A stretch of 64,000 nucleotides of DNA from a virus. The notes under the pieces were generated by a model, which was not told where the DNA came from, searched no databases, and was given only the letters and a program-made list of their open reading frames with translations. The stretch is taken from IMG/VR virus record IMGVR_UViG_3300047994_000617, positions 64,626 through 128,625 of that record. One strand, written 5' to 3'. The translations under genes and the position numbers were made by a program. Positions 4,769 through 60,451 of the stretch are shown one piece after another (the stretch's first letter is position 1; every line of letters starts with the position of its first letter).

Positions 4769-4783
4769 GCGAACGGACGACCC

Positions 4784-40597: not shown

Positions 40598-41328
40598 AGG
40601 GCCCCCGGTTCGCGATCCACACCCGCGACGGTGAGGCCGTCTCGGTCGTCACGGCCCGGAACGAGACGGCGGCTTGGAATAAGCTCGCCCACCAACAAGG
40701 CCTCGGCGACGCCAGGCGCGCCGACGCCATGGCACCAGGCTGGCGGGACCGCTTTGTCGTGACGGACACGCGGGACCTACACACATGGAGGATCGTCACG
40801 ACGAAGGGCGCGCAGAACATGGGGGCGTTCCTGGCGCGCACGGCGGCGAGCGCGCTGGACGTGCTGGCCCACAAGCAGCGCTTCCGGAGCGCCAAGCATG
40901 CGGAGGCCCACGAGGCCGGCTGGGCCAAGCGCTACCGGGTTGCGCTTGAGACCGTAGCCGGTGGCCAGGGGGCCGCGAACGACAGTCGCGTATCGGCAGC
41001 AGACTCCGACGTCGAGGACTTCGCCGTGTTCAAGGATGTCGCGACGGGCTGGGGTCCTCCCAAATGGGAGCGCGTCGGCACGGTGTCAGCCGCCACCCCC
41101 GACGATGCCGCGATCGCTGCCAGGTCCCGCTGGTCGGCGGAGGATTCGCTGATGCTTCGGCCGCTCGGGAAGCCTCAATACGGCACCTTCCGCATCTTCC
41201 GGGGTCGCGCGGACCTCGGAGTTTTCGGAGGACGCGACGAGGCCGGGGCGCTCGACGTCGCAGTGCGGGCGGGGACGATCAAGCGGGGCGAGCGCGGGCT
41301 CCGGGTGGTGCAGGAGCGGACCAGATGA
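40594..41328 (+). CDS. Hypothetical protein with RIFRGR..GxFGG module
   Basis: ATGA coupling at both ends. Confidence 0.65.
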   Translation: MKGPRFAIHTRDGEAVSVVTARNETAAWNKLAHQQGLGDARRADAMAPGWRDRFVVTDTRDLHTWRIVTTKGAQNMGAFLARTAASALDVLAHKQRFRSAKHAEAHEAGWAKRYRVALETVAGGQGAANDSRVSAADSDVEDFAVFKDVATGWGPPKWERVGTVSAATPDDAAIAARSRWSAEDSLMLRPLGKPQYGTFRIFRGRADLGVFGGRDEAGALDVAVRAGTIKRGERGLRVVQERTR

Positions 41329-44300: not shown

Positions 44301-47300
44301 CGGCCGCTCGTGAGCGGCAACTACCTCTACCAGGCCGCAGGCACGCTGCACTGGATCGAGCCCGCGACGCCCACGCTCCGCTCGGTGGAGTGGCGGGGGT
44401 TCTTCGTCGAAGCGGGCTACGTGCCCAGGGATCCACCGAAAGTCGAGGAGATGATGGCCACGAACGATGCCGGTGCGCCCGCGGACCCCTTCACGGCGCT
44501 CGACGCGGCCGACCCACTCGACGTGCTCCAGGAGAAGGTGCTCGACCCGCTCCACGAGGCCGCGAAGGGGACGTGGTTGGAGAACGTGCGGACGGCCCAA
44601 CGCGACTACCTGAAGAGCACCTGGGTCGCCGACACGAAGCTCGGCGACTTCCTCCGCCTCAACGATCCGCCTCCGCCGGCGCCCCCGGCGATCCCCGCCG
44701 AGGGCGCGACGTTCGAGCTCTACCCGAAGCCCCTGAAGCTCAGCCCCGAGGCCGGCGATCCCGCAGCGGAGCCCGAGCCGAGCCGCACCGACGTGCTCCT
44801 CGAGGTCCTCCGGATGCGCCGAGAGCGGCACGTCGCGCCCTTCTCCAGTTGCAACATCACCGGCGCCGAGTGGAGCGAGGCGGAGGCCCGGGCGCGCGCC
44901 GCAGCGGCGAGGGCGCGGAGCAACCTCGACGCTGGCAACCTCGACCTCGACGCCGGCGACGCCCAGGGGGACCAGGCGCTCGCCGCGGCGGGCAAGGGGG
45001 CGGGGATCGGCGCGGCGGTGGGGACGGTGCTCGAAGCCGTGCCGGTCGTCGGCCCTCTGCTCCACGTCGTCGCAGTCGTCGTCGGGGCCATCGCCGGGGC
45101 CATCGCGGGCGCCACGATGGACACCTTCCATCTGGAGACGCCGGTCGTCGCCGCCGGCCTCGTGGTCGCGATGCACGTCCTGCCGAACCTGCTTTTCAGC
45201 GGGATCGACACGGTGACCGTCGACAACGGCACCAACAAGCATCCGCCCGAGGAGCACGCGGCGCGCCTGGCCCGATACCTCCTGCTCTGCATGGGCGCCG
45301 TCCCGAACTCCTGGAAGCTCTACAACCCGAACGACTTCCACAGCCACGACAACCCGTACATGGAAGCGGTCGATCCCCGCTTCCCCCTCACCGATCCCCG
45401 CTACGACGCGCGGATCAAGGCGGCCGTGTCCCGGGGCATCCTCCTGCCGCCGGACGTGTCGACGCCAGCCCAGGCGCAGGCGCTGCTCCTCGCGTTCCGC
45501 GCGATCCTGGCACCCTCCAAGCTCCTCCAGTGGAGCCAGGTGCAGGCCCACCTCCCCCAGCTCCGCCGCAACATCCAGCACCTCCGCGCCCTCGCCGGCG
45601 AGACGGGCGACGACCCGGAGCTCCGCATCGCGCTCGGGGGCGACGTCCAGCCGCACTTCTTCTACCCGCACGGGACCCACGTGGCTCCGCGGCACGTCCA
45701 GGCGCCTCGGCCCGCGCCGGCGGCACCGCGCCCGATCCTTCGTCTTCCGGCCCCCCGGCGCCCCCTCGCGCCGGCGCCGCCCGATCCCTTCAGGGATCTC
45801 CGACCCCAGCCAGAGACCAGGAGCCCCACGATGACCACGGACGCACCGGAGGACCCCTTCCAGACGCTCACCGACGCGGGCGCACCCGCGGATGCCGGTG
45901 AAGCAGGCGCTCCTCCCGAACCGTGGAGACTAAAGGACCCGACGTGGCGTCCCGTCGTGGTGCGCGAGGCGACCGCGGCGGACCTGCACCAACAGGGCTG
46001 GCTCCCCGCGTATTCAAAGGGCGCCAAGGTCTTCGCCGTGCCTCCTGGGGTGGGCGGCGGATGGGTCGACCTGGGGGGTCGAACCGCGGTCGGGTACTAT
46101 TTCTCGCCGCAAGAACCGTGGCGCGGCGCCTCCGTGGGGGACAGCCCGCCCGGTGAGATCCTCCCGGCGATCACCAACGGATCGGTCTCCGGGTACCCCG
46201 TCGACTCGCGCGACTGGAGTCAGGGGATCCTCGGAGAAGCCGGCACCTGGACCTACTTCCGGTTCAAGGAAAACCGCCGCATTCCTCTCGCCTCCGGGAT
46301 CCGAGACGTGGCGCGCGCCGACGCGACGACGCGCGAGAACTACGGCAGCTTCACCGAGCCGATCACGATCTACCGCGTGCCAGCCGACGGCACCGGGGAG
46401 TGGGTCGTGGTCTTCACGAACCGGAACTGGAAGTACGACCGCTACCGCTACGACCGCGACGCGTGGATGCACTTCGACAGGACGCTCGCCAGCGGCGTGC
46501 CCGAGGGCGAGGCGGAGGCGCGCGACCGCCAGATCCAGGGCGACGAGCGCCGAATGGGGGAGCCCAACGTCGTCGTCCTGCGCACGCCGAGCGACGACTG
46601 GATGGAGCACCGCTTCGTGTGGGACACGAAGCAGGGCGGCGTGCCGGAGCCGGGGAGCGGCGCGTACGGCATGGCGCCGGGCGCGCCGAAGCGGAGCGAG
46701 ACCGCAGGCGCCGAGGGCGGGGGCGAGCCTAGCTCCTTCGCCGGCGGCTCTCTGGTGTCGATCTGGCACCCCACCGATCAGCGCTGGCAGGACGTCGCCC
46801 GCACCCAGCCCGGCCCGCGGGGCGCAGACCTCGCCACCGACGTCGGCACCCTCTGCGCCAAGGCGCTCTCCGTCCGGTTCCCGGGCCCCCTCTTCGTCCA
46901 GGTGATCCGCCGCACGCCGGGCTCCCGGGGCGTCACCCTGCTCGTCGCGCGCGACGGGCAGGCCACGGCGCAGGAGTTCCCCGCCGGGGGCGTGGAGCCC
47001 TCCTGGCCGGGCTGGACGCGGGCCTCCGGCGTGGCGCCCACCCGTCCACGCCCCGGCCGCTACGACGGCGACGGGGACACGTTCGCCTCGAGCTCGACCG
47101 TCTCGATGTGGATCGCCCGAGGTGGCACCTGGGAGGACCTCGCCGAGGCGCTCCCGCACCGAGACGTCGACATCGGCAGCCTCCTCGCCAAGCACGTCGT
47201 CCATTCGACCGCGCAGAAGTCGACCCGCACCGCCCGCGCCCGCTGCGTGCGGCGAGGCGCCGATGGGGCGCCGATGGAGACGACCCTCTTCGCCTGCCGG

Positions 47301-50300
47301 CCCGGCGGCGACGTCCACGCGGAGCGGTTCTCCGCCGGCGAGGCGCCGAGCTGGGCGCGGCTCCCCGAAGGCGACACGGGCGGACCAGAGGCCGAGGGCA
47401 CTCCCGGCAACCCGGCGGACTTCATCGGCGGCGGGATCGTATCGCTCTGGATCCCCCAGGCGGGGCGCTGGGAAGACGTCGCTCGCACCAAGCCTGGAGC
47501 TCGGGGCGCCGGCCTCGCCCAGGAGCTCGGCGCCCACCTGCTCGGCGTGCTCGCGCAGACCGTGCCCGGTGAGCCCGTGTTCGGGGTGGTCGTCCAACGC
47601 GACGCCGCCCAGAAGGGCATGCTGCTCTTCGCCAAGGCCCGCGGCGGCGCGATCGCGGGCGAGTGGTTCCCCGCCGGGAGCGCACCGCACTGGCCGTGGT
47701 GGGCGCAGGAAGCCCGTCTCGCGCCCCCGCCGCGATCGGCCGCCTACCAGGGCGACGCCGACATCTTCGAGCACGGCTCGCTCGTCTCGCTCTTCAACCG
47801 CGCGGCGGGCGCGTGGGAGGACCTCGCCGAGTCCCGTCGCACGGGGCCGTTCGACCTGAGCCCGGAGATCGCCGGGTTCATGGCCCGCGACTTCGCGGAC
47901 CGGGCGCAGCTCGCCGGCCTCGCCCGCTACGTGAAGCGCGACCCGCGCACATGGACGGGGACCGTCCTCGTGGCCTGCGGTCCCGGCGGCAAGCCCCGGG
48001 AGGAGCACTTCCCGACGGGGACGACGCCCACCTGGGGGAAGCTGCTCTCGGCGGGGGAGACCGGAAAGGCGGCCGAGGCCGGCGGCCCGGCCGAACCGAG
48101 CGCCGGGCCGAACCTCTACGTCCGGCCCACGCGGGGTCTCGATCGCGCGCAGCGACGGCGCGGGGCCCGCGCGGCATGGACGCTCTCCGAGTACGTGCGC
48201 TCGCTTCCAGGTGCTGCGGAGTGGTTCAACAACGTCTTTCCCGTCGTGATGCCACGCAGGCCCGAGAGCGATCAGGAGAGCATCGTCCTGGAAGCGCTCG
48301 CCTACGAGGGCAAGCCCATCGGCAGCGCGGTACCTGAGCAGTGGATGGGCTTCAAGGTCGTGCCGAAGAACTGGACGATCGACGCTGTGCGCCAGTTGGG
48401 CCGGGGCGTTGACCTCGGCATGATGAACGCGAACGGCACGTTCCAGGCCATCCGGGGCAGTGATGTGAAGGGCTACATGGACGTGCCGCGCGGCATGGTG
48501 TCGGGGCACGCCTACCGCATCCGTCCGCTGTCCGTTGAGTGGCAGCCTGGGGAGCGCATCGAGATCGTCGAAGACCTCGGGATTAGGCCGATCCATGCCG
48601 GGAACGAGTTCGACGACTGGGACGTCATCATCGGCACCGACCCCGATGCGGACGCGGGCGCTCCCCCTGGCGCCATCGAGCGCGAGCTCACCCGAGAGAT
48701 CGCCGCCAACCTCGCCCTCTGGTGCCGCGCCTGGCCGGTGGCCTGCGACCCCGAGGACTTCGGCACGCCGGCCGACCTGCGGGGCCTGTGGACGATCCGC
48801 GGTGCGAAGGCGCTCCGGAGCTTCCAGGAGTGGTTCAACGATCGCGCGCGCGCCTCGGTGCTGCCGGTCGACGGCATCCGGTGGCCCGGCACGACCAGGG
48901 CGCTCGCGGCCTGGGCGTCGGGCGCGAGCGGCGAGGCTGGCGATCCGCTCGACACGCTGCAAGCTGGGCTGCTCGATCCTCTGCACAAGTTCGCCGAGGA
49001 AGCCGCCCCGGAGATCGAGCAGGCGCGGCAGGCCCAACGGAACTACCTGAAGGGCACCTGGGTCAGGGACTCGGCGCTCGGGAGGTTCCTGCGCCTCGAC
49101 GTCCCCGATCCCGTGACACCCGTCACGCTGACCCCGGAGCCTCCGCCGTCCTACCCGGTCGTGCCGGTGCCGTCGCGAGCGAAGCCCCCGCGCCGGGCGC
49201 CGAGCGGATCGCCACCCCTGCGCGCGCCGCAGACCATCCTGACCCCGGAAGCCAGCAAGCGGAACGCCTTCCTCGCGGACGTGGGCGCGCTCCCGGCAGA
49301 CCCCTTCGAGGACATCCTCGACGTCGGCGACATCGATCCAGCCCAGTGCGCCGCGCTGGCGACCCTGCTCGCCCAGCTCGATCGCCGGTTCCCGTTCCGG
49401 GGAAAGGGCCCGCTCGACGGGCTCGCGGAGACCGATCAGGGCGTGCCCTACCTCCGAGTGACCGGCGATCCCGGTCGCACCGTCGGCGGGACGCGCACCG
49501 GGCCCGACCTCCGGGCGCTGAAGCGCGCGGTGATGGGCGATCCCCGTGCGGAGCAAGCCTACGAGGCGGTCGAGGACGGCGCCCGCTACCTGGTCGTCGT
49601 CGCCAAGCCGCTCCCGGCTCGCCGCCAGGACCCTTCCGCCTGGGATCTGGGCGCGCTCGCTCCGCGCGGCGAGGCATCCGGCGCGGGCAGTGGTGAGACG
49701 GGCGACGAGGCGGGCTTCCCCTGGGTAGCGGTCGGTGTTCTCGCGCTGATCGGACATTTCATCGCGCGATCCTTCCCTCCCACGGACGACAAGGCCGAGG
49801 CGATCAACGCGTACCGGGCTGCCGTCGCGAAGGGGCTCACGGACCAGCAACTCGGCGAGGCAACGCCCAAGCTCCTCGCCAACCTGGGTGGCCGGGCAGG
49901 GTGCGAGAACATTCTCGACGCCATCGAAGGGACGCGAACGCCGGACAGCCTTACGGACCAGAACCAGCGCTCGACCTACAACATCCTGAGCGGAGCGTTT
50001 CGTGGGGGCGAACCGGGCGATCTGATGCGCTCGATCTTCCGGGACCTCGGCGGCGCGCCCGGGGCGCGCAAGCTCCTCGCGGCGCTCTACAGCGGTGGCC
50101 CGACGGCCGATCTCACGCCCCTTGGCCAGCGGGTCGCCCGCACGGTCGGCAGCAAGATGCGCGCGGAGCACGGCGACGCGAGCGGTCCCCTCGAACCCTG
50201 GGGAGCAGCGTTCGAGCTCGTCCATCAGGTGGACCGTCTCTGGCCGAACAGGTCGCGGATCCACGACGGCGTGTGGGAGGGCAAAGAGCCGCACGCGGAG

Positions 50301-50921
50301 ACCGGGACGGGCCGAGCGCTCTTCGTGGGCTTCACCTACGACCCGGACAAGGGCCTCACCCGCGCCGACTTCGAGCGGATCCTGGGCGGACTCGCCCGCG
50401 ATCCACGCTACCTCGCGCACTATACGGGAAACGCCCGGGAGCCGTGGCGCATCGTGCTCGCTCTCGAGACCGCGGCTGACTGCAGCCCGTGGAACTTCTC
50501 GGGAGGGCAGACGGGAGGGCCCAGTCCGGAGACCGCCGGCGCCGGCGAGCCCTTTGCGGCCCTGACCACGCTGCTCAACCAGATCAACGCGCGCTACCCC
50601 AACCGGGACACCGGCCGCCAGGACGGGATCCAGACCGAGGGAGGCCGCTTCGCGCTGGCGATCACCGAGGACAAGGCCGCGCACATCGGCGCGCGCCTCC
50701 CGTCCCTCGCACAGCTCGCCGCCGCGGTCCGGGCCGATCCGCGCTGTGAGCGGGCGGAGTTGCTCGAGCCGCACTTCTGGAACTCGACCGAGGTCCCCTA
50801 CCTGCGGATCTTCACCCGAGCGGGATCGGCCTCCGAGGACGACCGGCGCTGGAACCTCTCCGCGCTCGGCGGGAGCGACACCGGCGAGGCCACCCAGCCG
50901 AGGACGAGCGCCCGGTGCTGA
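41325..50921 (+). CDS. ~3198-aa mosaic protein: unknown N-terminal domain, serpin, papain-like (C39-like) protease, hydrophobic hairpin, PG-binding-like domain, internal repeats
   Basis: Serpin ~42615-43724 (FSPASI..VNAIYFLGKW..VDEEGTEAAAAT..FNADHPFLF..LFMGRV). Protease GQCGGM/HQV/WDPN ~43830-44440. ALRSFQ..LPVDGI..T..AL ~48750-48920. Confidence 0.85.
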   Translation: MTSARQIRGSAFMASLPPGGDPTSIREREALVLDAVRRGIAQPITWAPVKTQIPGHTGVVYVATDTLRFGVPGPTSTSLVAPADRREWAGEPGDWNWVRIAVTADTAQKIADQLGVLLPTDKILDLAHAQADVHLTPHVQMNVTATTEGMLQHHVAIEAERAGREGLISTIGKDWILGNELCPPPWGGPPAHPLGYDGAINYGWHTDQAPTRNGPYVAQPGIVVWQSRGLRHNRGHVDYSQWVPRFVAPWMEVDGQRVSTADVMQSKELAGLVSYEGPLRSVRLPDAPSRKLQNRTARPGAGERPAPEAADPFDALEAGAPSPTPDTFYRSANGDVWIGTIEDGMFRWNAAAVFKPPREKTLPGHAYRIGPLRDCGEGECTFDLLEDLELVPVHGTDIDTSGASQEAPSPPTGSGLCDPFADYRAEHPESGVNAFGLALFARIRRAPGNLAFSPASIWTALAMPFAGARGETAEQMARTLDDHRTSREIVPAAGVVVSRINEPRPGTTIRLASRLFGAQGYPFQPAYLRLTRETFGAPLEPVDFGAAEAARARINGWVAEQTEDRIKDLLPEGSVDSLTRLVLVNAIYFLGKWAAPFEATGTRPAPFHASPTDVRQVPTMAQTLHCRFADVAGVKLAELPYRNNDLAMLLVLPAEVDGLAALEARLSPAVLADWVGALSEARVRVRLPKFEIAPEGFSLGAALKALGMPLAFDPARADFTGIAEPTSSTERLFLSDVFHKAFVKVDEEGTEAAAATAIVAKAVSMDPRPEADFNADHPFLFFLRDTNTGMVLFMGRVSDPAASAPGTRDAGEPLLLGPTDPSFDLAETGAPEAGSKVIDLGDHILRFVNSFRDAKFLGITFPGQCGGMASTVLDYFFADRPAPTGRTTPPVSDPLGAYIQGRQQDSLLFGGNIAHFAKMLVNPDDADIARQSAASFAEVRRAIDAGKPVLLGLIPHPWSLDPRKVTRAHQVVAHGYMVGDDGGRSVLIWDPNRPLVSGNYLYQAAGTLHWIEPATPTLRSVEWRGFFVEAGYVPRDPPKVEEMMATNDAGAPADPFTALDAADPLDVLQEKVLDPLHEAAKGTWLENVRTAQRDYLKSTWVADTKLGDFLRLNDPPPPAPPAIPAEGATFELYPKPLKLSPEAGDPAAEPEPSRTDVLLEVLRMRRERHVAPFSSCNITGAEWSEAEARARAAAARARSNLDAGNLDLDAGDAQGDQALAAAGKGAGIGAAVGTVLEAVPVVGPLLHVVAVVVGAIAGAIAGATMDTFHLETPVVAAGLVVAMHVLPNLLFSGIDTVTVDNGTNKHPPEEHAARLARYLLLCMGAVPNSWKLYNPNDFHSHDNPYMEAVDPRFPLTDPRYDARIKAAVSRGILLPPDVSTPAQAQALLLAFRAILAPSKLLQWSQVQAHLPQLRRNIQHLRALAGETGDDPELRIALGGDVQPHFFYPHGTHVAPRHVQAPRPAPAAPRPILRLPAPRRPLAPAPPDPFRDLRPQPETRSPTMTTDAPEDPFQTLTDAGAPADAGEAGAPPEPWRLKDPTWRPVVVREATAADLHQQGWLPAYSKGAKVFAVPPGVGGGWVDLGGRTAVGYYFSPQEPWRGASVGDSPPGEILPAITNGSVSGYPVDSRDWSQGILGEAGTWTYFRFKENRRIPLASGIRDVARADATTRENYGSFTEPITIYRVPADGTGEWVVVFTNRNWKYDRYRYDRDAWMHFDRTLASGVPEGEAEARDRQIQGDERRMGEPNVVVLRTPSDDWMEHRFVWDTKQGGVPEPGSGAYGMAPGAPKRSETAGAEGGGEPSSFAGGSLVSIWHPTDQRWQDVARTQPGPRGADLATDVGTLCAKALSVRFPGPLFVQVIRRTPGSRGVTLLVARDGQATAQEFPAGGVEPSWPGWTRASGVAPTRPRPGRYDGDGDTFASSSTVSMWIARGGTWEDLAEALPHRDVDIGSLLAKHVVHSTAQKSTRTARARCVRRGADGAPMETTLFACRPGGDVHAERFSAGEAPSWARLPEGDTGGPEAEGTPGNPADFIGGGIVSLWIPQAGRWEDVARTKPGARGAGLAQELGAHLLGVLAQTVPGEPVFGVVVQRDAAQKGMLLFAKARGGAIAGEWFPAGSAPHWPWWAQEARLAPPPRSAAYQGDADIFEHGSLVSLFNRAAGAWEDLAESRRTGPFDLSPEIAGFMARDFADRAQLAGLARYVKRDPRTWTGTVLVACGPGGKPREEHFPTGTTPTWGKLLSAGETGKAAEAGGPAEPSAGPNLYVRPTRGLDRAQRRRGARAAWTLSEYVRSLPGAAEWFNNVFPVVMPRRPESDQESIVLEALAYEGKPIGSAVPEQWMGFKVVPKNWTIDAVRQLGRGVDLGMMNANGTFQAIRGSDVKGYMDVPRGMVSGHAYRIRPLSVEWQPGERIEIVEDLGIRPIHAGNEFDDWDVIIGTDPDADAGAPPGAIERELTREIAANLALWCRAWPVACDPEDFGTPADLRGLWTIRGAKALRSFQEWFNDRARASVLPVDGIRWPGTTRALAAWASGASGEAGDPLDTLQAGLLDPLHKFAEEAAPEIEQARQAQRNYLKGTWVRDSALGRFLRLDVPDPVTPVTLTPEPPPSYPVVPVPSRAKPPRRAPSGSPPLRAPQTILTPEASKRNAFLADVGALPADPFEDILDVGDIDPAQCAALATLLAQLDRRFPFRGKGPLDGLAETDQGVPYLRVTGDPGRTVGGTRTGPDLRALKRAVMGDPRAEQAYEAVEDGARYLVVVAKPLPARRQDPSAWDLGALAPRGEASGAGSGETGDEAGFPWVAVGVLALIGHFIARSFPPTDDKAEAINAYRAAVAKGLTDQQLGEATPKLLANLGGRAGCENILDAIEGTRTPDSLTDQNQRSTYNILSGAFRGGEPGDLMRSIFRDLGGAPGARKLLAALYSGGPTADLTPLGQRVARTVGSKMRAEHGDASGPLEPWGAAFELVHQVDRLWPNRSRIHDGVWEGKEPHAETGTGRALFVGFTYDPDKGLTRADFERILGGLARDPRYLAHYTGNAREPWRIVLALETAADCSPWNFSGGQTGGPSPETAGAGEPFAALTTLLNQINARYPNRDTGRQDGIQTEGGRFALAITEDKAAHIGARLPSLAQLAAAVRADPRCERAELLEPHFWNSTEVPYLRIFTRAGSASEDDRRWNLSALGGSDTGEATQPRTSARC

Positions 50922-51723: not shown

Positions 51724-52197
51724 ATGGAGACGACCGTCATCGCCCAACAGGCCCGAATGCTGCTCATCGCCCTGTGGGCGAGGCTCAACTGGAAGACCAC
51801 CCTTCTCGGGGTGCTCTCCGCGACCGCGGTCGTCCTTCAACGCATCCCGGACGCTTCGCCGCACTGGCAGGACGTCGTGGCGGCGGTCGCCCTGACCGTG
51901 CTCGGCGCGCTCGGGGTCGACCCAAACCGGTTGCCCGCGGGCGAAACCACGGCGTCGGCGCTGCTCTCGTGGGCGCAGATCAACTGGCAGACCACGCTGG
52001 CCGGCGTGGTCACCGCCGGCGTGGTGGTGCTCCAGCGCGACGGGATGCTGCACTGGCAAGACGGGGTGGCCGCCCTGCTGCTCACAGCGCTCGGTGCGCT
52101 CGCTGTGGATCCCCACCGCGTGCCGGTGCCGTCCGTCGCCCCCCGGCCCGCCACGCCCGCCGATCCCCCTGCCCCCTCCCCCTCGACCCCGCAGTGA
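51724..52197 (+). CDS. Holin-like membrane protein with internal duplication
   Basis: Two copies of NW[KQ]TTLxG..HWQD.VAA..LT.LGAL.VDP; strong RBS GGAGG. Confidence 0.6.
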   Translation: METTVIAQQARMLLIALWARLNWKTTLLGVLSATAVVLQRIPDASPHWQDVVAAVALTVLGALGVDPNRLPAGETTASALLSWAQINWQTTLAGVVTAGVVVLQRDGMLHWQDGVAALLLTALGALAVDPHRVPVPSVAPRPATPADPPAPSPSTPQ

Positions 52198-52211: not shown

Positions 52212-53117
52212 ATGGAGCCCTCGTCCAAGCTCGCGGGCTTCGCGCTCCTCGGCCAATCGCTCCCGGTGGCGCGGATCTTCGTGGCGATCCCCGTCCCGGC
52301 CGATCTGGGCGCATCTCTGGGCCGGGCGACCGCCCGCACCCGGAGCTCCGCGCCCGCCGCCCGGTGGACGGCGCCGGCGGCGCTGCACATCACCCTCGCC
52401 TTCCTCGGCGACGTCCCCTTCGCGCGCCTGCCGGAGGTCCTCGGCGCTTGCTTCGAGGTCACCCTGCAGCACGCCCCGATCGATCTCGTGTGCGTCGGCG
52501 CTGGCGTCTTCAAGGGTAAGCGCCCCAAGGTCCTCTGGGCCGGCCTGATCGGCGCCACGGCCGCGCTCGAGGCGGTCCACCGGGATCTCCTCGCCAGCCT
52601 CCAGCCCCTCGGCGTCCCGCCCGCGCAGCACCCCTTCGCGGCGCACATCACCCTGGCGAGGGCCGAGGACCCCAACGGCGACCCGGCGCTCGTCCGGTGC
52701 GCCTCGGCCCTCCAGGACAGCGACTTCGGCGCCATGCGCGCCGCCGAGATGGTGCTCTACCGGAGCGACGGTCCGCCGCGGCACCACGCCTACACGCCGA
52801 TCGCGCGGCTCCCATTCCGGGGGCGCGATGGGGCGTCGGCGAAGCCAGCGTTGGAGGAGTTGGAGGAGCGCATCCGGGCGGCCTACCTCCGGGTGACCGG
52901 CGGGAAGCTGAACGAGAGCGTGACCCTGGCCAAGCTCCGCGCCGAGCTCCCCGGCGCGCCCAGGGAGGCCGTGGACGAAGAGCTCCGCCGGATGCAGCAG
53001 GAGCACGTCGCGGTGCTCTACCCGATCGATGACCCGCGGCGGCTCCGGCCCGAGGACCACGCCGCGGCGATGAGGGTCGCCGGAGAGCGGCGCGACATCG
53101 TGGCCCTGACGAGGTGA
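52212..53117 (+). CDS. 2H phosphoesterase (ThpR/2'-5' RNA ligase family) + C-terminal helical domain
   Basis: RIFVAI..LHITLAFLG..VLWAG..FAAHITLAR..LYRS; both HxT motifs intact. Confidence 0.85.
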   Translation: MEPSSKLAGFALLGQSLPVARIFVAIPVPADLGASLGRATARTRSSAPAARWTAPAALHITLAFLGDVPFARLPEVLGACFEVTLQHAPIDLVCVGAGVFKGKRPKVLWAGLIGATAALEAVHRDLLASLQPLGVPPAQHPFAAHITLARAEDPNGDPALVRCASALQDSDFGAMRAAEMVLYRSDGPPRHHAYTPIARLPFRGRDGASAKPALEELEERIRAAYLRVTGGKLNESVTLAKLRAELPGAPREAVDEELRRMQQEHVAVLYPIDDPRRLRPEDHAAAMRVAGERRDIVALTR

Positions 53118-53120
53118 TGG

Positions 53121-54296
53121 GTGGCCGTCTCGCGCAGGCTGGAGGGGTTCGCGCTTCTCGGGGTCGCTGCCGCGCCCGCGCCGGAGAGTGCGCGCCTCGC
53201 CGGCTTCGCCCTTCTGCGGCCAGCGCCGGCGCCGGCACCCGAGAGCGCGCGCTTCCGCGGCTTCGCCGCGCTCGCCGCCGTCCCCGGGCCGATGACGCTG
53301 CAGCGCTTCGTCTCCCTGCCCCCGTCTCAGCGGCCCCTCCTGGTGGTGGCCGACGGAATGGGCCTCGATTCCTCCGGGGTGCTGGAGGGTCTTCGTCGGC
53401 TCGGTGTCCGCCCCGACGTCATCCAGCACGCCGACACCGGCGACGAAGGAAAGAAGACCGTCGCCTTCCGCGAGGTCCGCCAGGCCTGGCTCCGAAGGAT
53501 CGGCTTCCCCGAGTTCGTGCTGGTGAAGCGACCGCCGGGCATCTCGGGCAAGACGGGCATGTTCTTCGAGACGCTCGGCGAGAAGTGCATCGCCTACGAC
53601 ACCCTCCCCGGCCACGCCTTCGGGAAGAAGAGCTGCTCGAAGGAGTGGAAGATCGAGCCCCAGGAGACGTGGCTGGCGAAGTACCCGCCCGCCAAGGCGC
53701 TCTGGGACCGCGGCGACAAGGTGGTGAAGGCGATCGGGTACGACGCGGGGCCGCTCGACTCCCGCCGGGCCCACAAGCTCACCAACGACGACCGCTACGA
53801 ATACATCTACCCCCTCCGCGAGTGGGGTTGGGACCGGGCCCGCATCCGCGCCGAGCTCGCGGCGGTGGGGGCGCCCATCCCGCCCAAGAGCGCCTGCACC
53901 TTCTGCCCGGCGGCGAAGCCCTGGGAGATCGCGGAGCTCGTACGCGACGAGCCTGAGAAGGCCGATCAGATCGTCGCAATGGAGGATGCCGCCCGGCCGG
54001 GCCTCCGGGGCATCGAGGGGCTCTGGGGCGAGGGACGCAAGGGCTTCCGGATGGTCAAGGGCGTCCCCAAGCCCACAGGCGCCATCGCGCGCCCTGGGTC
54101 GATGGCGCTCTTCATCCGCCAGCTCCGCGCCGACCCCGCCCTGCTCGAGCACTACCTCGCCATGCGGCCCCCGGAGCCCGTCTACCTCGGTCCGGTGGGC
54201 GGCATCCCGCGGTTCCGGGGACCCACCAACGACGCGCCCCCTTCGCGCCGGCGCCTGCCACTCGTCGAGCATGAGCCGCTCTCGGAGGCTGGATGA
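53121..54296 (+). CDS. PP-loop (PAPS-reductase/DndC-like superfamily) protein
   Basis: GMGLDS, HADTGDE, CSKEWKIEP, IGYDA, YPLREWGWDR and KSACTFCP. Confidence 0.7.
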   Translation: MAVSRRLEGFALLGVAAAPAPESARLAGFALLRPAPAPAPESARFRGFAALAAVPGPMTLQRFVSLPPSQRPLLVVADGMGLDSSGVLEGLRRLGVRPDVIQHADTGDEGKKTVAFREVRQAWLRRIGFPEFVLVKRPPGISGKTGMFFETLGEKCIAYDTLPGHAFGKKSCSKEWKIEPQETWLAKYPPAKALWDRGDKVVKAIGYDAGPLDSRRAHKLTNDDRYEYIYPLREWGWDRARIRAELAAVGAPIPPKSACTFCPAAKPWEIAELVRDEPEKADQIVAMEDAARPGLRGIEGLWGEGRKGFRMVKGVPKPTGAIARPGSMALFIRQLRADPALLEHYLAMRPPEPVYLGPVGGIPRFRGPTNDAPPSRRRLPLVEHEPLSEAG

Positions 54297-55168
54297 CCTC
54301 CGCGCGCCTCGCCGGCTTCGCCCTGCTCGGGACCCGTCCGCCTGCGCCCGCGACCGACTGGAGGGCGTTCTCGCGGGCCCTGAAGAAGCTGCTCTGGGGG
54401 CCGCTGTTGTCCATGCTCCACCCGCTGGGCGATGCCGGATGGAACGACGGCGGCTGCAGAGTGCTCGCAGACGCCAATCTCCTCTGGCTCCCCCGAGCGA
54501 CGCGGTACGTGGTCACCGGCACGCACGACCACGGGCCTGGCGGCCCCGCCAAGGTGCAGCACGTGCTCGTGCGGGTCGGGGATCGTTACCTCGACGGCGA
54601 CGGGGCCTCGACAGAGGCCACGCTGCTGAAGCGCTGGCGCACCCAGGAGGACGTGGCGAACGCGCGGCTCGCGCCCGATCCTGCTGGGCTCTTCGCCGAT
54701 AGCGCCGAGGAGATCCCCCAGGACCGCGAGATGTCCGAGGAGATTGCTGCGGTGCTCCGCAACAAGCTCTCGGCCCTGATGCCCGCGGACGCGCGGCCCG
54801 CCGCCGCGCTGGTGATCGCCCAGACCGCCGAGGGCCTCTTCGCCGCGATCCGCAGCCACAAGCACGGGGGCAGGGTCTGCTTCCCCGGCGGCACGATCGA
54901 GCCGCGCGAGACGCCCGCCCAGGCGGCCGCCCGCGAACTGGGGGAGGAGACCGGCCTCGAGGCTGGCCCGATGAAGCACCTCGGGACGCGGGACGACAGC
55001 GAGCACGTCTGCGCCCTCTTCCTGGCCCCCGCCTGGCACGGGGCGCTCCGTTCCTCCCGGGAGGGCGAAGCCTTCTGGGCAACCGAACGAGACCTGACGG
55101 GGGCCTCGTCGGCCTTCCCCGAGTTCAACCGCTGGGCCTTCGAGCGCCTGGCTGCAAAGGCGACATGA
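54293..55168 (+). CDS. Unknown N-terminal domain + Nudix hydrolase
   Basis: Nudix box GTIEPRETPAQAAARELGEETGL. The N-terminal domain has GGC..LA / HVLV / YLDGDG (Cys-His-Asp spacing). Confidence 0.8.
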   Translation: MTSARLAGFALLGTRPPAPATDWRAFSRALKKLLWGPLLSMLHPLGDAGWNDGGCRVLADANLLWLPRATRYVVTGTHDHGPGGPAKVQHVLVRVGDRYLDGDGASTEATLLKRWRTQEDVANARLAPDPAGLFADSAEEIPQDREMSEEIAAVLRNKLSALMPADARPAAALVIAQTAEGLFAAIRSHKHGGRVCFPGGTIEPRETPAQAAARELGEETGLEAGPMKHLGTRDDSEHVCALFLAPAWHGALRSSREGEAFWATERDLTGASSAFPEFNRWAFERLAAKAT

Positions 55169-55470
55169 AGGACGTCGACCGAGAGGCACCGACCCCGCGA
55201 GAGAGCGCGACGTGGGAGTTCCAGAGGGGGGTCGCCAAGGGGCTTTCCCAGCAACTGCAGGACGAAGAGATCCGGCTCGGGAAGGTGTCCCCGTCGCTCG
55301 ATACCGGCCGGGCCAACATGCTGCGCTACCAGCGCATGGTGGTCGACCACTATGCCGCGCTCTTCGAGCGCGAGGTGCGCCCGGGCGCGCCCGGGATGGG
55401 CGCGCGAGACCGCAGCGAGTTCTCCGCGCTCGTCCGCCTGGTGCAGGCGTTGCTGGAGCCGCGCGCGTGA
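55165..55470 (+). CDS. Hypothetical protein
   Basis: Coupled at both ends (ATGA and GTGA). Confidence 0.55.
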   Translation: MKDVDREAPTPRESATWEFQRGVAKGLSQQLQDEEIRLGKVSPSLDTGRANMLRYQRMVVDHYAALFEREVRPGAPGMGARDRSEFSALVRLVQALLEPRA

Positions 55471-57161
55471 GCCGCCCAGCGAAGCCCAAGGCGCAGAACG
55501 CGGAGGTCGTGCGTCCCAAGCGCGGAGCGCCGGCGGGCACCGTCGCCGCAGATGCGGCGAAGGACGGGAAGTGGCCGGAGGACACCCTCGGGATCCTGAC
55601 CCTGATCCAGGAGCACCAGGGATCCGGCGCGAAGAAGTGGGGCGCCAACCACGAGGGCTTGCCCCGGGCAACGATCGACCGCCTCGTGCGTGAGCAGCTC
55701 GTCCAAGAAGTCTTCATGAGCGGGCTGCCCGTGACGACGAAACATCCCCGCAAGCACTTCCCCACGCTGCTCATCACGACCGACGCCGGGGACGCGCTCG
55801 TCGCCACCGGGAACGACGGGGCCGCGGCGGTCGGGACCGCGCCAGCGCCGCCCGACGCCGATGTCCAAGAGGAGCAGCCTCCTTTGAGGGCCGCGCGCCC
55901 CGCCGGCTCTCTGGCCGCGGACGCAATCCGCTGGGCGAACCGCACCCGCGAGCAGGTGGCCCGGCTCACCGCGACCGAGCGCGAGACGTTCTACGAGATT
56001 CACGCGGCGGAGACCCTCCGTATCGCCATCCAGGCGGCCAAGAAGGCCAAGATCCCCGAGCCCGAGCGGGAACTCGTCGCGCGCGCAGCGCTGGCCTCGC
56101 ACCCCGAGCTCCGCCCCTTCCTCGAGGTCCTCCCGGCGGAGGGCAGCACGCTGCCGGGCGCGCCGGTGGTGCTCGTCGCCTGCGCCGCCCAGAAGGTCGA
56201 TACGCACGGGCAGCGCGTACCCGCGGCCGATCTCTACTCGTCCCCCCTCTTCCGCAAGAGCCTCGCCTACGCCCGCGCGATCACCTCCGAGGACAACATC
56301 CGGATCCTCTCTGCGCGGCACGGAGTGATGCGCCTCGACGACCGCATCGGGACCTACGAGACCCCGATGAGCAAGCTCAGCAAGCGCGAGAGCAGTGCGT
56401 GGGCAGAGCGGGCGCGCAACACGATCATGTCGGAGTTTGGGCACGAGCGGTCGCGTCAGGTCGTCTTCCTCGCCGGCGACGACTACGAGATCGGCCTGCC
56501 CGGGCAGTGGCTGGTGGCGCGCCCCCTGGCGGGCAAGTCGATCGGCCAGCGCCTCCACTGGCTCAACGACCAGCTCCGTGCTCTCGGGGCCTCCGAGACG
56601 CCCGCTCCCAAGGTCGCGCCGCCGCGGCGCGCACAGATCCGCCTGAATACGAAGGGACGGCCGTGGCGCGACGTCGAGGCCCTCGCCTGGAACGGCGACC
56701 TCTTCATCCACGAGGACAACGAGGACCCGGACATCCTCCGGGTGACGCACGCGCCGACCGGCCGGATGATGCCGGATCCCTTCTCGGATCTCGTATCCGC
56801 CCTGTCGTTCGCCGTAGAGCTGAACGATCCCGCCGTCCGCCCAGCGCTCGACGCGCTCATCCAGGCCACCGCGAAGCGAGGAAAGGACGCGATCACCGTT
56901 GCCGGGAGACGTCTGCGGCAGGTGCTGGACGCGAGGGAGGCTGCGCGTGGTCGCGCGGCGGCGCCGGCGCCGCTGGACGAGGCTCCGCCATCGTCCCAGC
57001 TCGCCCTCGCTCCTGATGCGCCGCCTGCACCGGCGCGGGCTCGCACGGCTGGCTTCGCCCTGCTCCGGGCCATCCCCCGTCCACCCGCCACGCCGCCGGC
57101 GCGTCTCGCCGGGTTCGCCCTACTCGCTTCCCTCCCGGCGGGGAGGTCGGCCGCCGGATGA
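55467..57161 (+). CDS. Multidomain protein with DUF6884-like domain
   Basis: VVLVACAAQK..PAADLYSSPLFRKSLAYA..ILSARHG..FLAGDDY..PLAGKSIGQRLHWL. Confidence 0.7.
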   Translation: MSRPAKPKAQNAEVVRPKRGAPAGTVAADAAKDGKWPEDTLGILTLIQEHQGSGAKKWGANHEGLPRATIDRLVREQLVQEVFMSGLPVTTKHPRKHFPTLLITTDAGDALVATGNDGAAAVGTAPAPPDADVQEEQPPLRAARPAGSLAADAIRWANRTREQVARLTATERETFYEIHAAETLRIAIQAAKKAKIPEPERELVARAALASHPELRPFLEVLPAEGSTLPGAPVVLVACAAQKVDTHGQRVPAADLYSSPLFRKSLAYARAITSEDNIRILSARHGVMRLDDRIGTYETPMSKLSKRESSAWAERARNTIMSEFGHERSRQVVFLAGDDYEIGLPGQWLVARPLAGKSIGQRLHWLNDQLRALGASETPAPKVAPPRRAQIRLNTKGRPWRDVEALAWNGDLFIHEDNEDPDILRVTHAPTGRMMPDPFSDLVSALSFAVELNDPAVRPALDALIQATAKRGKDAITVAGRRLRQVLDAREAARGRAAAPAPLDEAPPSSQLALAPDAPPAPARARTAGFALLRAIPRPPATPPARLAGFALLASLPAGRSAAG

Positions 57162-58357
57162 CCTCGGCGCGCACCGCAGGCTTCGCCCTGCTCGGGCAGC
57201 TCCCCTTTCCCGGGACGACGCCGGCGCCGACGCCTGCCCGGGCGCGGCGGGGGACGACGGGACTGCCCCAGGCCCCGACGAAGCGCCAGTTCCTGGCGCG
57301 GATGCTGATCGAGCAGTTCCCGACCCTCCGCTACGACTTCGCGCCGAGCGCGGACTTCGACACGCCCCCTGTGGACCCCCTCTCGTACGACCACATAATC
57401 GTGGCGTTCAGCGGGGGGAAGGACTCCCTCGCTCTGGTGCTGCTCCTCCTGCTCCTCGGCGTCCCCAAGGACCGGATCGAGCTCTGGCACCACGAGGTCG
57501 ACGGTGGAGAGGGCGAGGGGCCCGGCGGTCGGACCTCGACCCTCATGGACTGGCCTTGCACGCCGGCCTACTGCGCAGCCGTCGCCCAGGCCCTCGGGCT
57601 CAAGCTCTACCGCTCTTGGAAAATCGGCGGTTTCGAGATGGAGATGCGCAAGGAGAACGCGCCCACCGCGGGCTACCTCTTCGAGCGCCCGGACCGGAGC
57701 TTCGAGCGCGGGGGAGGTCCGAGCGACGACGGGACCCGACGCATGTTCCCGGCGAAGGTCGGGGACCTCGGCAAGCGCTGGTGCAGCGCCTACCTGAAGA
57801 TCATGGTCGCGGACATCATCCTCCGCAACGAGCCACGCTTCCACGGCGCGCGCACGCTGGTGCTCACCGGCGAGCGGGGCGAGGAGTCCTCGAAGCGCGA
57901 CACCTACAAGGTCTTCCAGAAGCACCGGGCCGACCTCCGTGACGGCCGGGTCCCACGTCTGATCGACCAGTGGCGCCCGGTGCTGCGCTGGCCCGAGCCC
58001 GAGGTCTGGAAGCTGATCGAGCGCTTCAAGATCAACCCGCACCCCGCGTACCACCTCGGCTGGGGGCGCGTCTCGTGCGCCGCGTGCATCTTCGGCAGCC
58101 CCAACCAGTGGGCTTCGATCCAAGCGATCAACCCGGCGCAGTTCGACCTGATCGCGGCCTACGAGGACGACTTCGGCCACACGATCGACAACCACCGAAG
58201 CGTGCGGGAGATGGCGGCGCTCGGCACCCCCTTCCCCGGGATGCAGGCCCGGCACATCCGTGCCGCACTCTCCCGCACCTACGACGAGCCCGTGTTCGTC
58301 GACCCCTGGACCCTGCCTCGAGGTGCGCTGCTCGGCGACGCATCCGGGCCCATCTGA
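57158..58357 (+). CDS. PAPS-reductase-family (PP-loop) protein of the phage/mobile DNA-modification type
   Basis: AFSGGKDS, RWCSAYLK, GERGEES..R, RPVLRW and HPAY..G.GRVSCAACIF. Confidence 0.85.
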   Translation: MTSARTAGFALLGQLPFPGTTPAPTPARARRGTTGLPQAPTKRQFLARMLIEQFPTLRYDFAPSADFDTPPVDPLSYDHIIVAFSGGKDSLALVLLLLLLGVPKDRIELWHHEVDGGEGEGPGGRTSTLMDWPCTPAYCAAVAQALGLKLYRSWKIGGFEMEMRKENAPTAGYLFERPDRSFERGGGPSDDGTRRMFPAKVGDLGKRWCSAYLKIMVADIILRNEPRFHGARTLVLTGERGEESSKRDTYKVFQKHRADLRDGRVPRLIDQWRPVLRWPEPEVWKLIERFKINPHPAYHLGWGRVSCAACIFGSPNQWASIQAINPAQFDLIAAYEDDFGHTIDNHRSVREMAALGTPFPGMQARHIRAALSRTYDEPVFVDPWTLPRGALLGDASGPI

Positions 58358-59208: not shown

Positions 59209-59702
59209 TCGTCTGGCGCATCCTCGCCGACGGCGTGGACCTCGGGCTCTTCGGAGGCCGGACGGCCGCCGCCGCTCGCCAGGTGGCCGAGCGCGCCGGC
59301 AAGGTCCACCCCGGCCAGGCCGGCGTCGAGGTGCGCCCGTCGGCGATTTCGCTGGAGCTCACCCCGACCCACGACGCCGCCCTCCGCGCGATCGTCGCCC
59401 TCTACCAGGCCGCCGTGGAGAAGGAGCGCGAGCACTGGGGCGAGGCAAGCGCTGAGCGGCGCGCCGCCAAGGGGGTCGATCCCGTCCTGGTGGTGAAGAG
59501 CTACCACCGCACCCTCCACGCCCTCGCCGCGCTCGGCCTCATCACCGACCAGGCGCACCCGAAGGTCTTCGGCGAGCGTCTCCGGAAGGGCCACTGGGGC
59601 CACCGGCTCGGGGGCACGCGCACCGATCGCTACGTCCAACACATCGTGCGGCCGACGCCGCTCGGGCTCGAGTACGTCGCCCAGGAGAACCCCAAACCAT
59701 GA
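59205..59702 (+). CDS. Hypothetical protein
   Basis: ATGA coupling; N-terminal WRI..G.DLGLFGG module. Confidence 0.6.
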   Translation: MIVWRILADGVDLGLFGGRTAAAARQVAERAGKVHPGQAGVEVRPSAISLELTPTHDAALRAIVALYQAAVEKEREHWGEASAERRAAKGVDPVLVVKSYHRTLHALAALGLITDQAHPKVFGERLRKGHWGHRLGGTRTDRYVQHIVRPTPLGLEYVAQENPKP

Positions 59703-60451
59703 TCCCTCGCGGTCTTCCCACCCCTCCCCCCGGTTCGATCCTGATCGTCGACGCCTGGGCCGGGCAAGGCCAGCTCGACGTCCCCGCCCTCGTCCGCGCC
59801 GGCGCCGCGGCGATCATCGCCAAATGCACCGACGGGCTGCACCTGGACAACCCGCCGAAGGCGCTCGACGCCGAGTGGCTCCGCACCTCCCAGGCCTGCC
59901 TCGCCACGGACACGCCCCTGGCGCCCTACTGCGTGATCGAGCCCAACACCGACCCCGTCGCCCAGGTCCAGCGCGCCCTGGAGTACCTCCAGAGCCTCTA
60001 CGGCACTTGCGGGGCCCGTCTCGGACCGGTCTTCTGCGACTTCGAGCTCGCCGCGCGCGAGACCGGCGCGGCCGCCCTCCACGCAGCTCGCGTCTGGACC
60101 GACACCATGACCTCGGCCCTCGGGCGCCCCTGCGGGCTCTACACCATGCCGGCGTTCCGGGACGAGCTGGTGAAGCTCGCCGGGGGGATCAGCGGCCCCG
60201 CGGCGAACGACATCGCCGCCCTCGGCGCGCTCCCGCTCTGGCTCGCCGAGTACGGGGTGGCCGCCCCCAGGGTGCCCCGCCCGTGGTCCCGGGCGGCCTT
60301 CTGGCAGCGTTCCGGCGGTCGGGTCGCCTCTCCCCACGACTACGCCACCCTCCCCTGGCCCAACGCCCACGGGGCGGAGGTTGACGTCGACGTGAGCGTC
60401 CTCGAGGGGACCGTCGAGGACTTCCTGGCGCTCGGCCTGGAGGCTGCCTGA
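59699..60451 (+). CDS. GH25 muramidase (endolysin)
   Basis: IVDAW..Q, IAKCTDG, catalytic DFE, GLYT, LWLAEY, FWQ and VDVD. Confidence 0.8.
   Translation: MIPRGLPTPPPGSILIVDAWAGQGQLDVPALVRAGAAAIIAKCTDGLHLDNPPKALDAEWLRTSQACLATDTPLAPYCVIEPNTDPVAQVQRALEYLQSLYGTCGARLGPVFCDFELAARETGAAALHAARVWTDTMTSALGRPCGLYTMPAFRDELVKLAGGISGPAANDIAALGALPLWLAEYGVAAPRVPRPWSRAAFWQRSGGRVASPHDYATLPWPNAHGAEVDVDVSVLEGTVEDFLALGLEAA

Follow-up and report, generated by a model that had tools for sequence, protein, structure and literature searches.

A terminal peptide shared by the products of a coupled gene cluster

The DNA analyzed is a stretch of 64,000 nucleotides (the window), positions 64,626 to 128,625 of IMG/VR virus record IMGVR_UViG_3300047994_000617, and it represents the last 64 kb of a provirus record of 128,625 bases (GC content ∼72%; completeness 81% according to CheckV). 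Six genes on the + strand form a cluster at 52212-58357 of the window. They encode a 2H phosphoesterase of the ThpR/LigT type (52212-53117), a divergent PP-loop protein named PP1 (53121-54296), a protein in which a domain named domain X precedes a Nudix domain (54293-55168), a small helical protein of 101 amino acid residues (55165-55470), a DUF6884 (YaaA-like) protein of 564 amino acid residues (55467-57161) and a PP-loop protein of the PAPS-reductase family named PP2 (57158-58357). At four junctions, start and stop codons overlap by 4 bases (ATGA or GTGA), at the fifth the genes are 3 bases apart, and the third-position GC content (GC3) of all six lies between 0.88 and 0.95. The start of the DUF6884 gene was placed at GTG 55467 and not at 55212, because the GC3 of the small open reading frame (ORF) is 0.91 versus 0.45 for the 55212 frame upstream of 55467. 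A reading of this DNA from its letters alone (the sequence-only reading) had described six mostly translationally coupled genes, five of them tagged, between holin-like genes and a GH25 lysin gene; this arrangement was confirmed by the gene calls, the junctions, the GC3 values and the tag scan. Its assignments of 2H, Nudix, DUF6884 and two PP-loop proteins were borne out by Pfam, TIGR, PHROG and structure matches.

The tag in question is a peptide of eight residues with the consensus [R/K]-x-x-G-F-A-(L/S)-L. Five of the six cluster proteins carry the form [R/K]-x-x-G-F-A-L-L near one end, in eight copies in total: one N-terminal copy each in the 2H protein, the Nudix protein and PP2, three N-terminal copies in PP1 (the third being degenerate) and two C-terminal copies in the DUF6884 protein. 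With a looser pattern, four further copies (three at the N-terminus and one internal match) were found in a giant DarB-like protein encoded upstream of the cluster, which brings the total in the window to 12. The tag is thereby spread over seven proteins, being N-terminal in five of them, N-terminal in a degenerate form in another giant protein and C-terminal in one; it is often repeated and has Pro/Ala/Gly-rich surroundings. Every match is located within one block of the + strand, at 29.4-58.4 kb of the window.

Selection on the tag peptide

The tag occurs at a frequency far above chance. When the 128,625-base record was scanned in six frames, the pattern R..GFA[LSA]L gave 11 matches, versus a mean of 0.18 and a maximum of 2 in 200 residue shuffles. 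Among the 12 copies, the codons of the invariant G, F, A and last L showed 100 synonymous and 0 non-synonymous pairwise differences. Outside a core of ∼20 nt, the DNA of the copies was 60-72% identical, and no hairpin or inverted repeat accompanied them. Since the variation in the invariant codons is entirely synonymous, the flanks are poorly alike and an inverted repeat is lacking, selection acts on the displayed peptide and not on a DNA site. The leaders that bear the tag consist of Pro, Ala and Gly to 35-61%, and residues 1-54 of PP1, with a predicted local distance difference test score (pLDDT) below 50 in AlphaFold, are predicted to be disordered.

Twin-arginine and Sec signal peptides are found only at the N-terminus; the criteria are an Arg-Arg pair and a hydrophobic stretch of about 12 residues or more. 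The tag differs from such peptides in each respect, given that Arg-Arg is present in one of the 12 copies, the hydrophobic core comprises 5-6 residues, two copies are C-terminal and several stand in tandem.

A pattern scan of IMG/VR for DNA encoding L-A-G-F-A-L-L returned at least 119 stretches. The 80 loci that were screened all had a single copy, mostly in transmembrane segments or non-coding frames, and no related tagged element was found among them. Two of these matches (L075 and L108) were apparently terminal and were rejected, both being internal.

The 2H, Nudix and DUF6884 proteins

The 2H protein (tag core at 52227-52250) matched PF02834 with an E-value of 1.3e-20 (73.8 bits) and scored 116.5 bits with the curated equivalog model TIGR02258, whose cut-off is 65.7 bits. 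Its translation contains two H-x-T motifs, both H-I-T-L. The equivalog score and the H-x-T motifs are those of the ThpR/LigT RNA 2′,3′-cyclic phosphodiesterases, from which the protein differs by the tag, by a C-terminal extension of 100 residues belonging to no known family and by its setting in a provirus effector operon. By analogy with viral 2H enzymes, as treated in a survey of polyvalent proteins (PMC5512222), its substrate could be cyclic-nucleotide signals.

In the third protein, the tag core (54305-54328) is followed by domain X (residues ∼20-165; 54350-54790), which has no Pfam model, and by a Nudix domain (PF00293, 2.5e-16; 60.3 bits versus a cut-off of 21.1) with an intact box G-x5-E-x7-R-E-x-x-E-E-x-G. 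In an alignment of 37 sequences of domain X, C55, H90 and D101 were invariant. The structural model of the domain (pLDDT 90.1) was closest to SseI (Z 6.8; root-mean-square deviation 3.4 over 108 aligned residues), arylamine N-acetyltransferase (Z 5.6) and protein-glutaminase (Z 5.2), with vasohibin also among the closest structures; all Z scores are below 8, and the fold call is tentative accordingly. A Foldseek search with the same model gave no match at E ≤ 0.001. On the basis of the model, domain X is probably a hydrolase or transferase of the papain/transglutaminase-like type with conserved Cys, His and Asp residues. Its relatives are either widespread proteins of 130-180 residues or parts of proteins of 1131-1498 residues that also contain ART-PolyVal (PF18760), GNAT or M14 domains; the Nudix domain was likewise found in these large proteins.

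The small protein is the untagged member of the cluster. It had no match in Pfam, PHROG, NCBIfam or PADLOC, and a structure-atlas search returned only look-alikes with a helical hairpin.

The DUF6884 protein matched PF21818 at 3.6e-31 (108.5 bits versus a cut-off of 30), and its two tag cores are located at 57042-57065 and 57102-57125. The motifs C-A-A-Q-K and L-S-A-R-H-G of the translation correspond to CxxxK and LSAxxG, which are given as DUF6884/YaaA motifs in the literature (PMC11701544). In PADLOC, the protein showed a link to a candidate defence family at a score far below family membership.

Two divergent PP-loop proteins

PP1 carries its tag cores at 53136-53159 and 53193-53216, with the degenerate one at 53250-53273. 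It had no Pfam match, and it matched the phage PAPS-reductase family phrog_424 at 7.2e-17. Its PP-loop is degenerate (D-G-M-G-x-D-S), and three cysteines (C172, C259 and C262) are invariant. The AlphaFold model made with 19 relatives (pLDDT 75.4) gave 18 Foldseek matches at E ≤ 0.001, of which the best was the [4Fe-4S] sulfurtransferase TtuA (1.9e-05), followed by PAPS reductases, APS reductase and LarE. The predicted structure thus places PP1 in the PP-loop (adenine nucleotide alpha-hydrolase) fold.

PP2 has a PP-loop of the form S-G-G-K-D-S and a leader of 70 residues containing its tag core (57170-57193). It scored 39 bits with PF01507 (cut-off 22.5) and is the only one of the two to be a member by the Pfam test. 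The models of assimilatory CysH were not reached by PP2 (NF002537, 23.7 versus 154 bits; TIGR02055, 16.2 versus 235.3 bits), and its score with the DndC model TIGR03183 was far from the cut-off (26.7 versus 290.4 bits). Grouping with housekeeping CysH or ThpR would speak against the sequence-only reading; the 2H protein does group with ThpR by TIGR02258. A profile-profile comparison of PP1 with PP2 gave a weak match (probability 12%).

Partial matches in PADLOC linked PP2 to BrxP (2.7e-12; 43.7 bits over 118 of 779 positions) and DndC (1.3e-06; 25.6 bits), and PP1 to SspD (6.6e-06; 24 bits). The earlier assignment of both proteins to the PP-loop enzymes is supported, and their nearest named relatives act on DNA. 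Both proteins have in common with DndC, SspD and BrxP the PAPS-reductase fold, conserved cysteines and hidden Markov model matches that are weak but specific, and the PP1 model additionally resembles [4Fe-4S] sulfurtransferases. However, their scores are far below the cut-offs, the PP-loop of PP1 is degenerate, and the ORFs that were scanned included no partner gene, be it a cysteine desulfurase, DndD/E, SspB/C or the BREX core. PP1 and PP2 may work like DndC, SspD and BrxP in spite of the failed cut-offs.

PP2-type genes were mostly alone, and a PP1-type neighbor was present at 5 of 136 loci. An island on an IMG/VR contig of 155,559 bases (L261:5142-10912) encodes a C5 methylase, a Mom-family protein, DpdA (2e-85), a PP1-like paralogue of 319 residues (hhalign 95%) and an untagged PP1 homologue with 50% identity. 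The island points to DNA bases as the substrate of the PP1 family; DpdA is not present in the record analyzed here.

The tagged giant proteins

The DarB-like protein (29391-39674, + strand; 3427 amino acid residues) starts with a Pro/Ala-rich leader bearing three tags, followed by an N6-methylase (Pfam Eco57I/N6_Mtase) and an SNF2/helicase part (SNF2-rel_dom, Helicase_C). The three tag cores, R-T-(G/S)-G-F-A-S-L, are encoded at 29460-29483, 29553-29576 and 29646-29669 of the + strand and are separated by Pro/Ala linkers; all three are within the first 100 residues, and the Pro, Ala and Gly fraction of residues 1-125 is 0.61. The internal match, R-P-H-G-F-A-L-L at residue 567 (31080-31103, + strand), is of uncertain status as a functional tag. 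By tblastn, the protein is 25-30% identical to a phage "DarB-like anti-restriction protein" and to N6 methylases, the C-terminal half resembling phage proteins annotated as DarB-like. The DarB type is marked by an N6-adenine methylase and a superfamily-2 helicase in one giant phage protein that is packaged and injected; here the two domains are recognizable by Pfam, and packaging and antirestriction activity are putative. The link between the cluster and the DarB-like protein that had been drawn earlier gains support from the tag, which is present three times at the N-terminus of the latter. Just upstream of the DarB-like gene, an untagged protein of 575 amino acid residues (27657-29384; GC3 0.96) contains a Lys/Ala/Thr-rich stretch resembling histone H1, with weak Pfam matches to HC2 and extensin.

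The second giant protein (41325-50921, + strand; 3198 amino acid residues; start inferred at ATG 41325) contains a complete serpin domain (PF00079, 1.2e-104). It begins with M-T-S-A-R, the five residues with which the Nudix protein and PP2 also start, and the degenerate tag G-S-A-F-M-A-S-L comes next. Motifs of the form (A/E/G)-(D/E)-P-(F/L)-x-x-(L/I) were found at eight places in this protein, and some of them adjoin acidic-Ala/Thr-Gly-Ala-Pro sites. In sequence, the motifs at these eight places look like the module borders of a polyprotein, and the D-P-F-x-x-L border motifs look like the tag class of the relatives described below.

Tag-like motifs in related proteins

The PP2 family is very large (2491 hits among 7999 candidates scored), and its ordinary members are ∼320-340 residues long and have no leader. 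Of the 19 PP2 homologues fetched, most of those with 54-68% identity carry a leader of 23-65 residues that contains short hydrophobic motifs and spacers rich in Pro. The PP1 family is small (79 hits), and its members also have leaders, often with two motifs. For the DUF6884 protein, four relatives were obtained within the length window searched; DUF6884 relatives in proteins of 838-981 residues are fused to other modules, with tag-like motifs at the module borders. Two of these multi-module relatives (898-981 residues) have three N-terminal motifs and further copies at internal borders, and one relative that is 58% identical (P0203) has two C-terminal copies of W-G-S-V-L-G exactly at the positions of the two tags of the DUF6884 protein.

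The same motif was found across families. The form (S/N/A/D)-F-x-x-L-(A/V)-x-x-L-x-P is present in relatives of PP1 (P0124, P0125, P0126 and P0129), of the DUF6884 protein (P0204 and P0205) and of PP2 (P0003-P0006), and a separate motif pair is common to the PP2 relative P0015 and the PP1 relative P0138. For several relatives' clusters, the lengths of the longest contigs listed are identical (78,649, 77,842, 174,839, 8,249, 3,804 and 3,484 bases; the first two for P0124/P0204 and P0126/P0205, the third for P0009/P0127), which suggests that the motif-sharing relatives of PP1, PP2 and the DUF6884 protein are genomic neighbors. The motifs of these relatives, which come from other metagenomes, differ between elements and appear to be shared within an element.

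Further scans with PP2 covered genome contigs (27 loci, mostly from Gluconobacter prophages), viral contigs (4 loci, then 80 loci) and metagenome contigs (30 loci); they yielded a single close relative with a tag, whose contig of 2.4 kb has no informative neighbors. When IMG/VR was scanned with the PP1 alignment, three loci were returned, none of them tagged, and a scan with the FtsK-like ATPase of the record gave no locus.

Surrounding genes and structural-looking module

The cluster is flanked upstream by a membrane-protein ("holin-like") gene at 51724-52197. This gene contains an internal duplication, with 78-nt copies at 51858-51935 and 52047-52124 that are 71% alike and 189 nt apart. Downstream, the operon continues into a GH25 lysin gene (59699-60451; PF01183, 3.2e-09), which fits late expression. 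Besides the two giant proteins, the window also encodes a protein kinase, a Rha-like regulator, ParA and a serine recombinase, and the left half of the record encodes DnaB, C5 methylases, a PolA-type exonuclease, an FtsK/SpoIIIE-type ATPase and a protein with EF-hand and transglutaminase-core (Transglut_core) domains, whose gene adjoins that of the ATPase. No Pfam match to DnaN or PCNA was found in the record. Signalling genes that are unusual in a provirus were also observed, namely those of a Ser/Thr protein kinase, a PP2C phosphatase and a dual-specificity phosphatase (window 15046-16665; G000:C1:9509-10651 and 31024-31611).

A module of structural appearance extends over G000:C1:45050-66000 (L003 and L004) and positions 1-6238 of the window. 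It encodes the FtsK/SpoIIIE-type ATPase, an 826-residue protein, the EF-hand/transglutaminase-core protein and a 2129-residue protein, together with beta-rich proteins of 440 and 226 residues and a GDSL-lipase/SpoIID protein. For two structural candidates, no sequence match in the PDB was found below E = 0.89; the structure-atlas rows of the 440-residue candidate were below 0.9, and its model was poor. An unusually large, non-tailed virus with a membrane in its particle is one possibility for the element, and a different type of element is another. The sequencing runs that carry DNA of the record are moss metagenomes, with no RNA run among the runs listed; the four runs that were examined contained short fragments only and gave no information on the tags.

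Discussion

In our view, the tag is the main finding of this analysis, while the sequence-only reading had treated it as a label only. Apart from the tag, the tagged enzymes have nothing in common. The tag is near-invariant in this element and occurs in different flavors in related elements, which fits a co-evolving receptor encoded by the element; given this constancy within the element and the parallels with P1 DarB and encapsulins set out below, it is read as a docking or cargo-loading peptide. The cluster is accordingly seen, tentatively and at slightly under an even chance, as a "split polyvalent protein", in which each effector module carries a peptide for docking or cargo loading that would be recognized by a receptor of the element itself. 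Within this reading, and with equal reserve, the block at 29.4-58.4 kb would be the delivered effector set of the element. The idea of a split polyvalent protein had been put forward by the sequence-only reading, and it is strengthened by the relatives of domain X, the Nudix domain and the DUF6884 protein that are fused into large multi-module proteins.

The proposed mechanism is as follows. The cluster would be the gene-by-gene form of a polyvalent protein of phages or mobile elements, and its modules would share an address peptide and not a metabolic pathway. These modules would comprise the DarB-like methylase/helicase, the serpin giant, the 2H protein, the DndC/SspD/BrxP-like PP-loop pair, the Cys-His-Asp hydrolase-Nudix fusion and the YaaA-like putative DNA-binding protein. 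Present one to three times on disordered leaders or tails rich in Pro and Ala, the address peptide would dock onto an element-encoded receptor, presumably a component of the particle, so that the tagged proteins would be gathered into a particle or transfer complex late in the cycle. The enzymes may then be co-delivered with the DNA as counter-defence factors and act early against host defences such as restriction, nucleotide second messengers, damaged RNA ends and proteases. From what is known of the families, the DarB-like protein, PP1, PP2 and the DUF6884 protein could protect or modify DNA, the 2H protein could remove cyclic-phosphate ends or cyclic-nucleotide signals, and the Nudix domain could hydrolyze nucleotide-diphosphate compounds; amide or peptide bond chemistry would be expected of domain X and protease inhibition of the serpin.

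The tagged set is related to polyvalent proteins and to capsid-targeting and cargo-loading peptides, and the surprising part is a tag that is shared, selected and element-specific. In the available part of the survey by Iyer et al. 2017 (PMC5512222), polyvalent proteins are taken to accompany the DNA; they contain the same modules (DarB-type methylase/helicase, 2H, Nudix and peptidase-like domains) and are predicted to be DNA-delivered counter-defence factors. By contrast, the modules here are mostly separate, coupled genes, each with a terminal tag, and that part of the survey describes no shared short peptide; a term search of it found no mention of PAPS or YaaA. According to another article (PMC9024508), the first 30 residues of DarB are enough to direct a reporter into the capsid of phage P1, the internal proteins of T4 use an N-terminal capsid-targeting sequence, and the N-termini of the P1 Dar proteins are without a common consensus according to its authors. 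The likeness lies in a short peptide at the N-terminus of both a DarB-type giant protein and small enzymes, which in P1 and T4 is sufficient to load a foreign protein into the head. The present case, in which packaging is putative, differs in that one consensus is found in seven proteins, also at the C-terminus and with up to three repeats, and in that no head genes of tailed phages were recognized. Encapsulin cargo motifs may be located at either end of the cargo and may be repeated. For Family 2A encapsulins, the source (PMC8049743) describes cargo loading via short motifs in a disordered N-terminal domain, so that here too short conserved motifs in disordered termini address enzymes to a protein shell; the motif LARLANEFFS in that source has A-R-L-A in common with the tag, which may be chance. 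The differences are that no shell gene was recognized here and that the cargo would be provirus enzymes of nucleic acids and nucleotides, not metabolic ones. In the literature searched, no account was found of enzymes delivered by phages that have a consensus tag in common.

Several observations weigh against a docking or cargo-loading role. The receptor for the tag was not identified, and the 2H domain begins right after its tag with no linker between them. No HK97 capsid or portal family was found in the record by Pfam, and for the 42 ORFs scanned PHROG gave just two weak matches, one to a terminase (on the FtsK-like ATPase) and one to a tail protein. The record could accordingly belong to an unusual virus or to a mobile element of a different kind. 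Two proteins of the structural-looking module (P0357 and P0358) have hydrophobic segments that look transmembrane by eye. Among the relatives, a loose regular expression found a tag-like motif in only 9 of 20 PP2 sequences (PP2 itself included) and in 13 of the 18 PP1 sequences in which the PP-loop anchor was located (2 of the 20 fetched were without an anchor); this expression can match by chance in Ala/Leu-rich leaders, and not every relative is tagged. The sharing of motifs within elements is deduced from equal lengths of the longest contigs and from motif likeness. Finally, some distant homologues start with sequences resembling a sliding-clamp motif, which are considered below.

Among the alternatives, the one that survives best is the single pathway proposed by the sequence-only reading, in which the six genes and the DarB-like protein would constitute one undescribed route of DNA modification or anti-restriction, with the PP-loop enzymes adenylating and sulfurating (or otherwise modifying) DNA and the other members processing intermediates. 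It can draw on the matches of PP2 to BrxP and DndC and of PP1 to SspD, on the resemblance of the PP1 model to TtuA together with the three invariant cysteines, and on the L261 island, where a PP1 relative and a PP1-like paralogue stand beside DpdA, Mom and a C5 methylase. The literature adds that DUF6884 has been proposed to bind DNA and flip bases (PMC11701544) and that phage PAPS reductases have been discussed as DNA-modification or anti-Dnd factors (PMC13551039). Nevertheless, nothing shows that the six genes form one pathway: PP2-type genes are mostly alone and have a PP1-like neighbor at only 5 of 136 loci, the DndC (26.7 versus 290.4 bits) and CysH (23.7 versus 154 bits) cut-offs are far away, and the record is without DpdA. 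Moreover, the 2H, Nudix, Cys-His-Asp and serpin domains belong to no known DNA-modification route and are elsewhere separate modules of polyvalent proteins, and a pathway would leave unexplained the terminal peptide common to all members and to the two giant proteins. This explanation is therefore considered unlikely.

Binding of the tag to a conserved host hub would be a different explanation, the hub being either the sliding clamp of replication, at which enzymes acting on DNA would be held at forks, or an Hsp70-type chaperone, which would grip Arg-flanked hydrophobic stretches. Hub-binding motifs are typically short, hydrophobic, terminal and placed on flexible linkers, and they are sometimes repeated, as is the case for the tag; most of the tagged enzymes act on DNA, and Pfam finds no clamp gene in the record itself, so that a host clamp would be the target. 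The pentapeptide that docks in the cleft of the clamp has the consensus Gln, a hydrophobic residue, a small or acidic residue, Leu and Phe. The distant PP2 homologues P0008 and P0020, which start with Q-E-D-L-F-S-(L/F)-G, and a PP1-like gene (L191:1818-2927), which starts with Q-P-L-L-F-D-L, resemble this consensus, and these sequences hint that some members of the PP1 and PP2 families may be tethered to the replisome. By eye, some distant relatives fit the consensus, but the tag of the present element has no leading Gln, the DarB-like copies have Ser where Leu is expected, and the family-wide F-x-x-L spacing, with Ser or Glu at the position of the Leu, does not agree with the consensus. In addition, the tag varies between related elements yet is near-invariant here, which is expected of a co-evolving partner encoded by the element and not of a conserved host pocket, and the 2H protein, the Nudix protein and the serpin giant (with its degenerate copy) are tagged too. 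A host hub is for these reasons judged quite improbable.

The tag could also be a short membrane anchor, an Arg with a hydrophobic patch strengthened by repetition, by which the enzymes would be held at the membrane of the cell or at one inside the virus. Tandem copies would raise the avidity, and a membrane-containing particle is conceivable in view of the transmembrane-looking P0357 and P0358, the FtsK-type ATPase and the lack of Pfam matches to HK97 capsid and portal families. However, the hydrophobic core is just five or six residues long and its helical hydrophobic moment is low (0.2-0.6), the patch of the DarB-like variant contains a Ser, and the strict invariance of G, F and A over 12 copies exceeds the needs of a generic membrane affinity, which makes an anchor very unlikely. 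A similarly low probability is given to a processing or turnover signal, either a propeptide for the EF-hand/transglutaminase-like cysteine protease of the element or a degron that times enzyme removal. A candidate protease is encoded beside the ATPase, acidic-Ala/Thr-Gly sites adjoin the D-P-F-x-x-L motifs of the serpin giant, and the prohead protease of T4 removes capsid-targeting peptides; yet the tag itself contains no acidic-Ala-Gly site, C-terminal and triple copies would be odd in a propeptide, and processing would be compatible with, and not opposed to, a targeting role. Incidental translation of a repeat that serves at the DNA level, as a site of recombination or regulation or as a mobile repeat in frame, can practically be dismissed, since, despite the copies at gene borders and the same first five codons in three genes, the invariant codons vary only synonymously (100 versus 0), the flanks are 60-72% alike with no inverted repeat, and the relatives keep the peptide pattern with different letters.

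Returning to the docking or cargo-loading peptide, a broader version can be formulated, in which a large provirus lineage of putative myxobacteria-like hosts, possibly non-tailed, loads its counter-defence arsenal into the particle by means of an element-specific "postcode". The code would diversify between elements and mark module borders in the fused polyvalent forms, as a viral counterpart of encapsulin cargo loading. Taken in full, this version is rather unlikely, and it is offered as speculation.

The proteins that a virus or mobile element delivers together with its DNA are usually learned only from virion proteomics. Here, a selected consensus peptide joins seven otherwise unrelated proteins, and polyvalent proteins would be splittable into genes while keeping a common fate. 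Three little-known enzyme families, PP1, domain X and DUF6884, are flagged as probable counter-defence factors. If the tag is a loading signal, it would provide a sequence rule that predicts the co-delivered effectors of the lineage, a handle with which the receptor could be fished out and a simple tag for packaging foreign proteins. If the "postcode" holds true, eight residues would be enough to address any protein to the particle, and the injected effectors of such elements would be readable directly from sequence.

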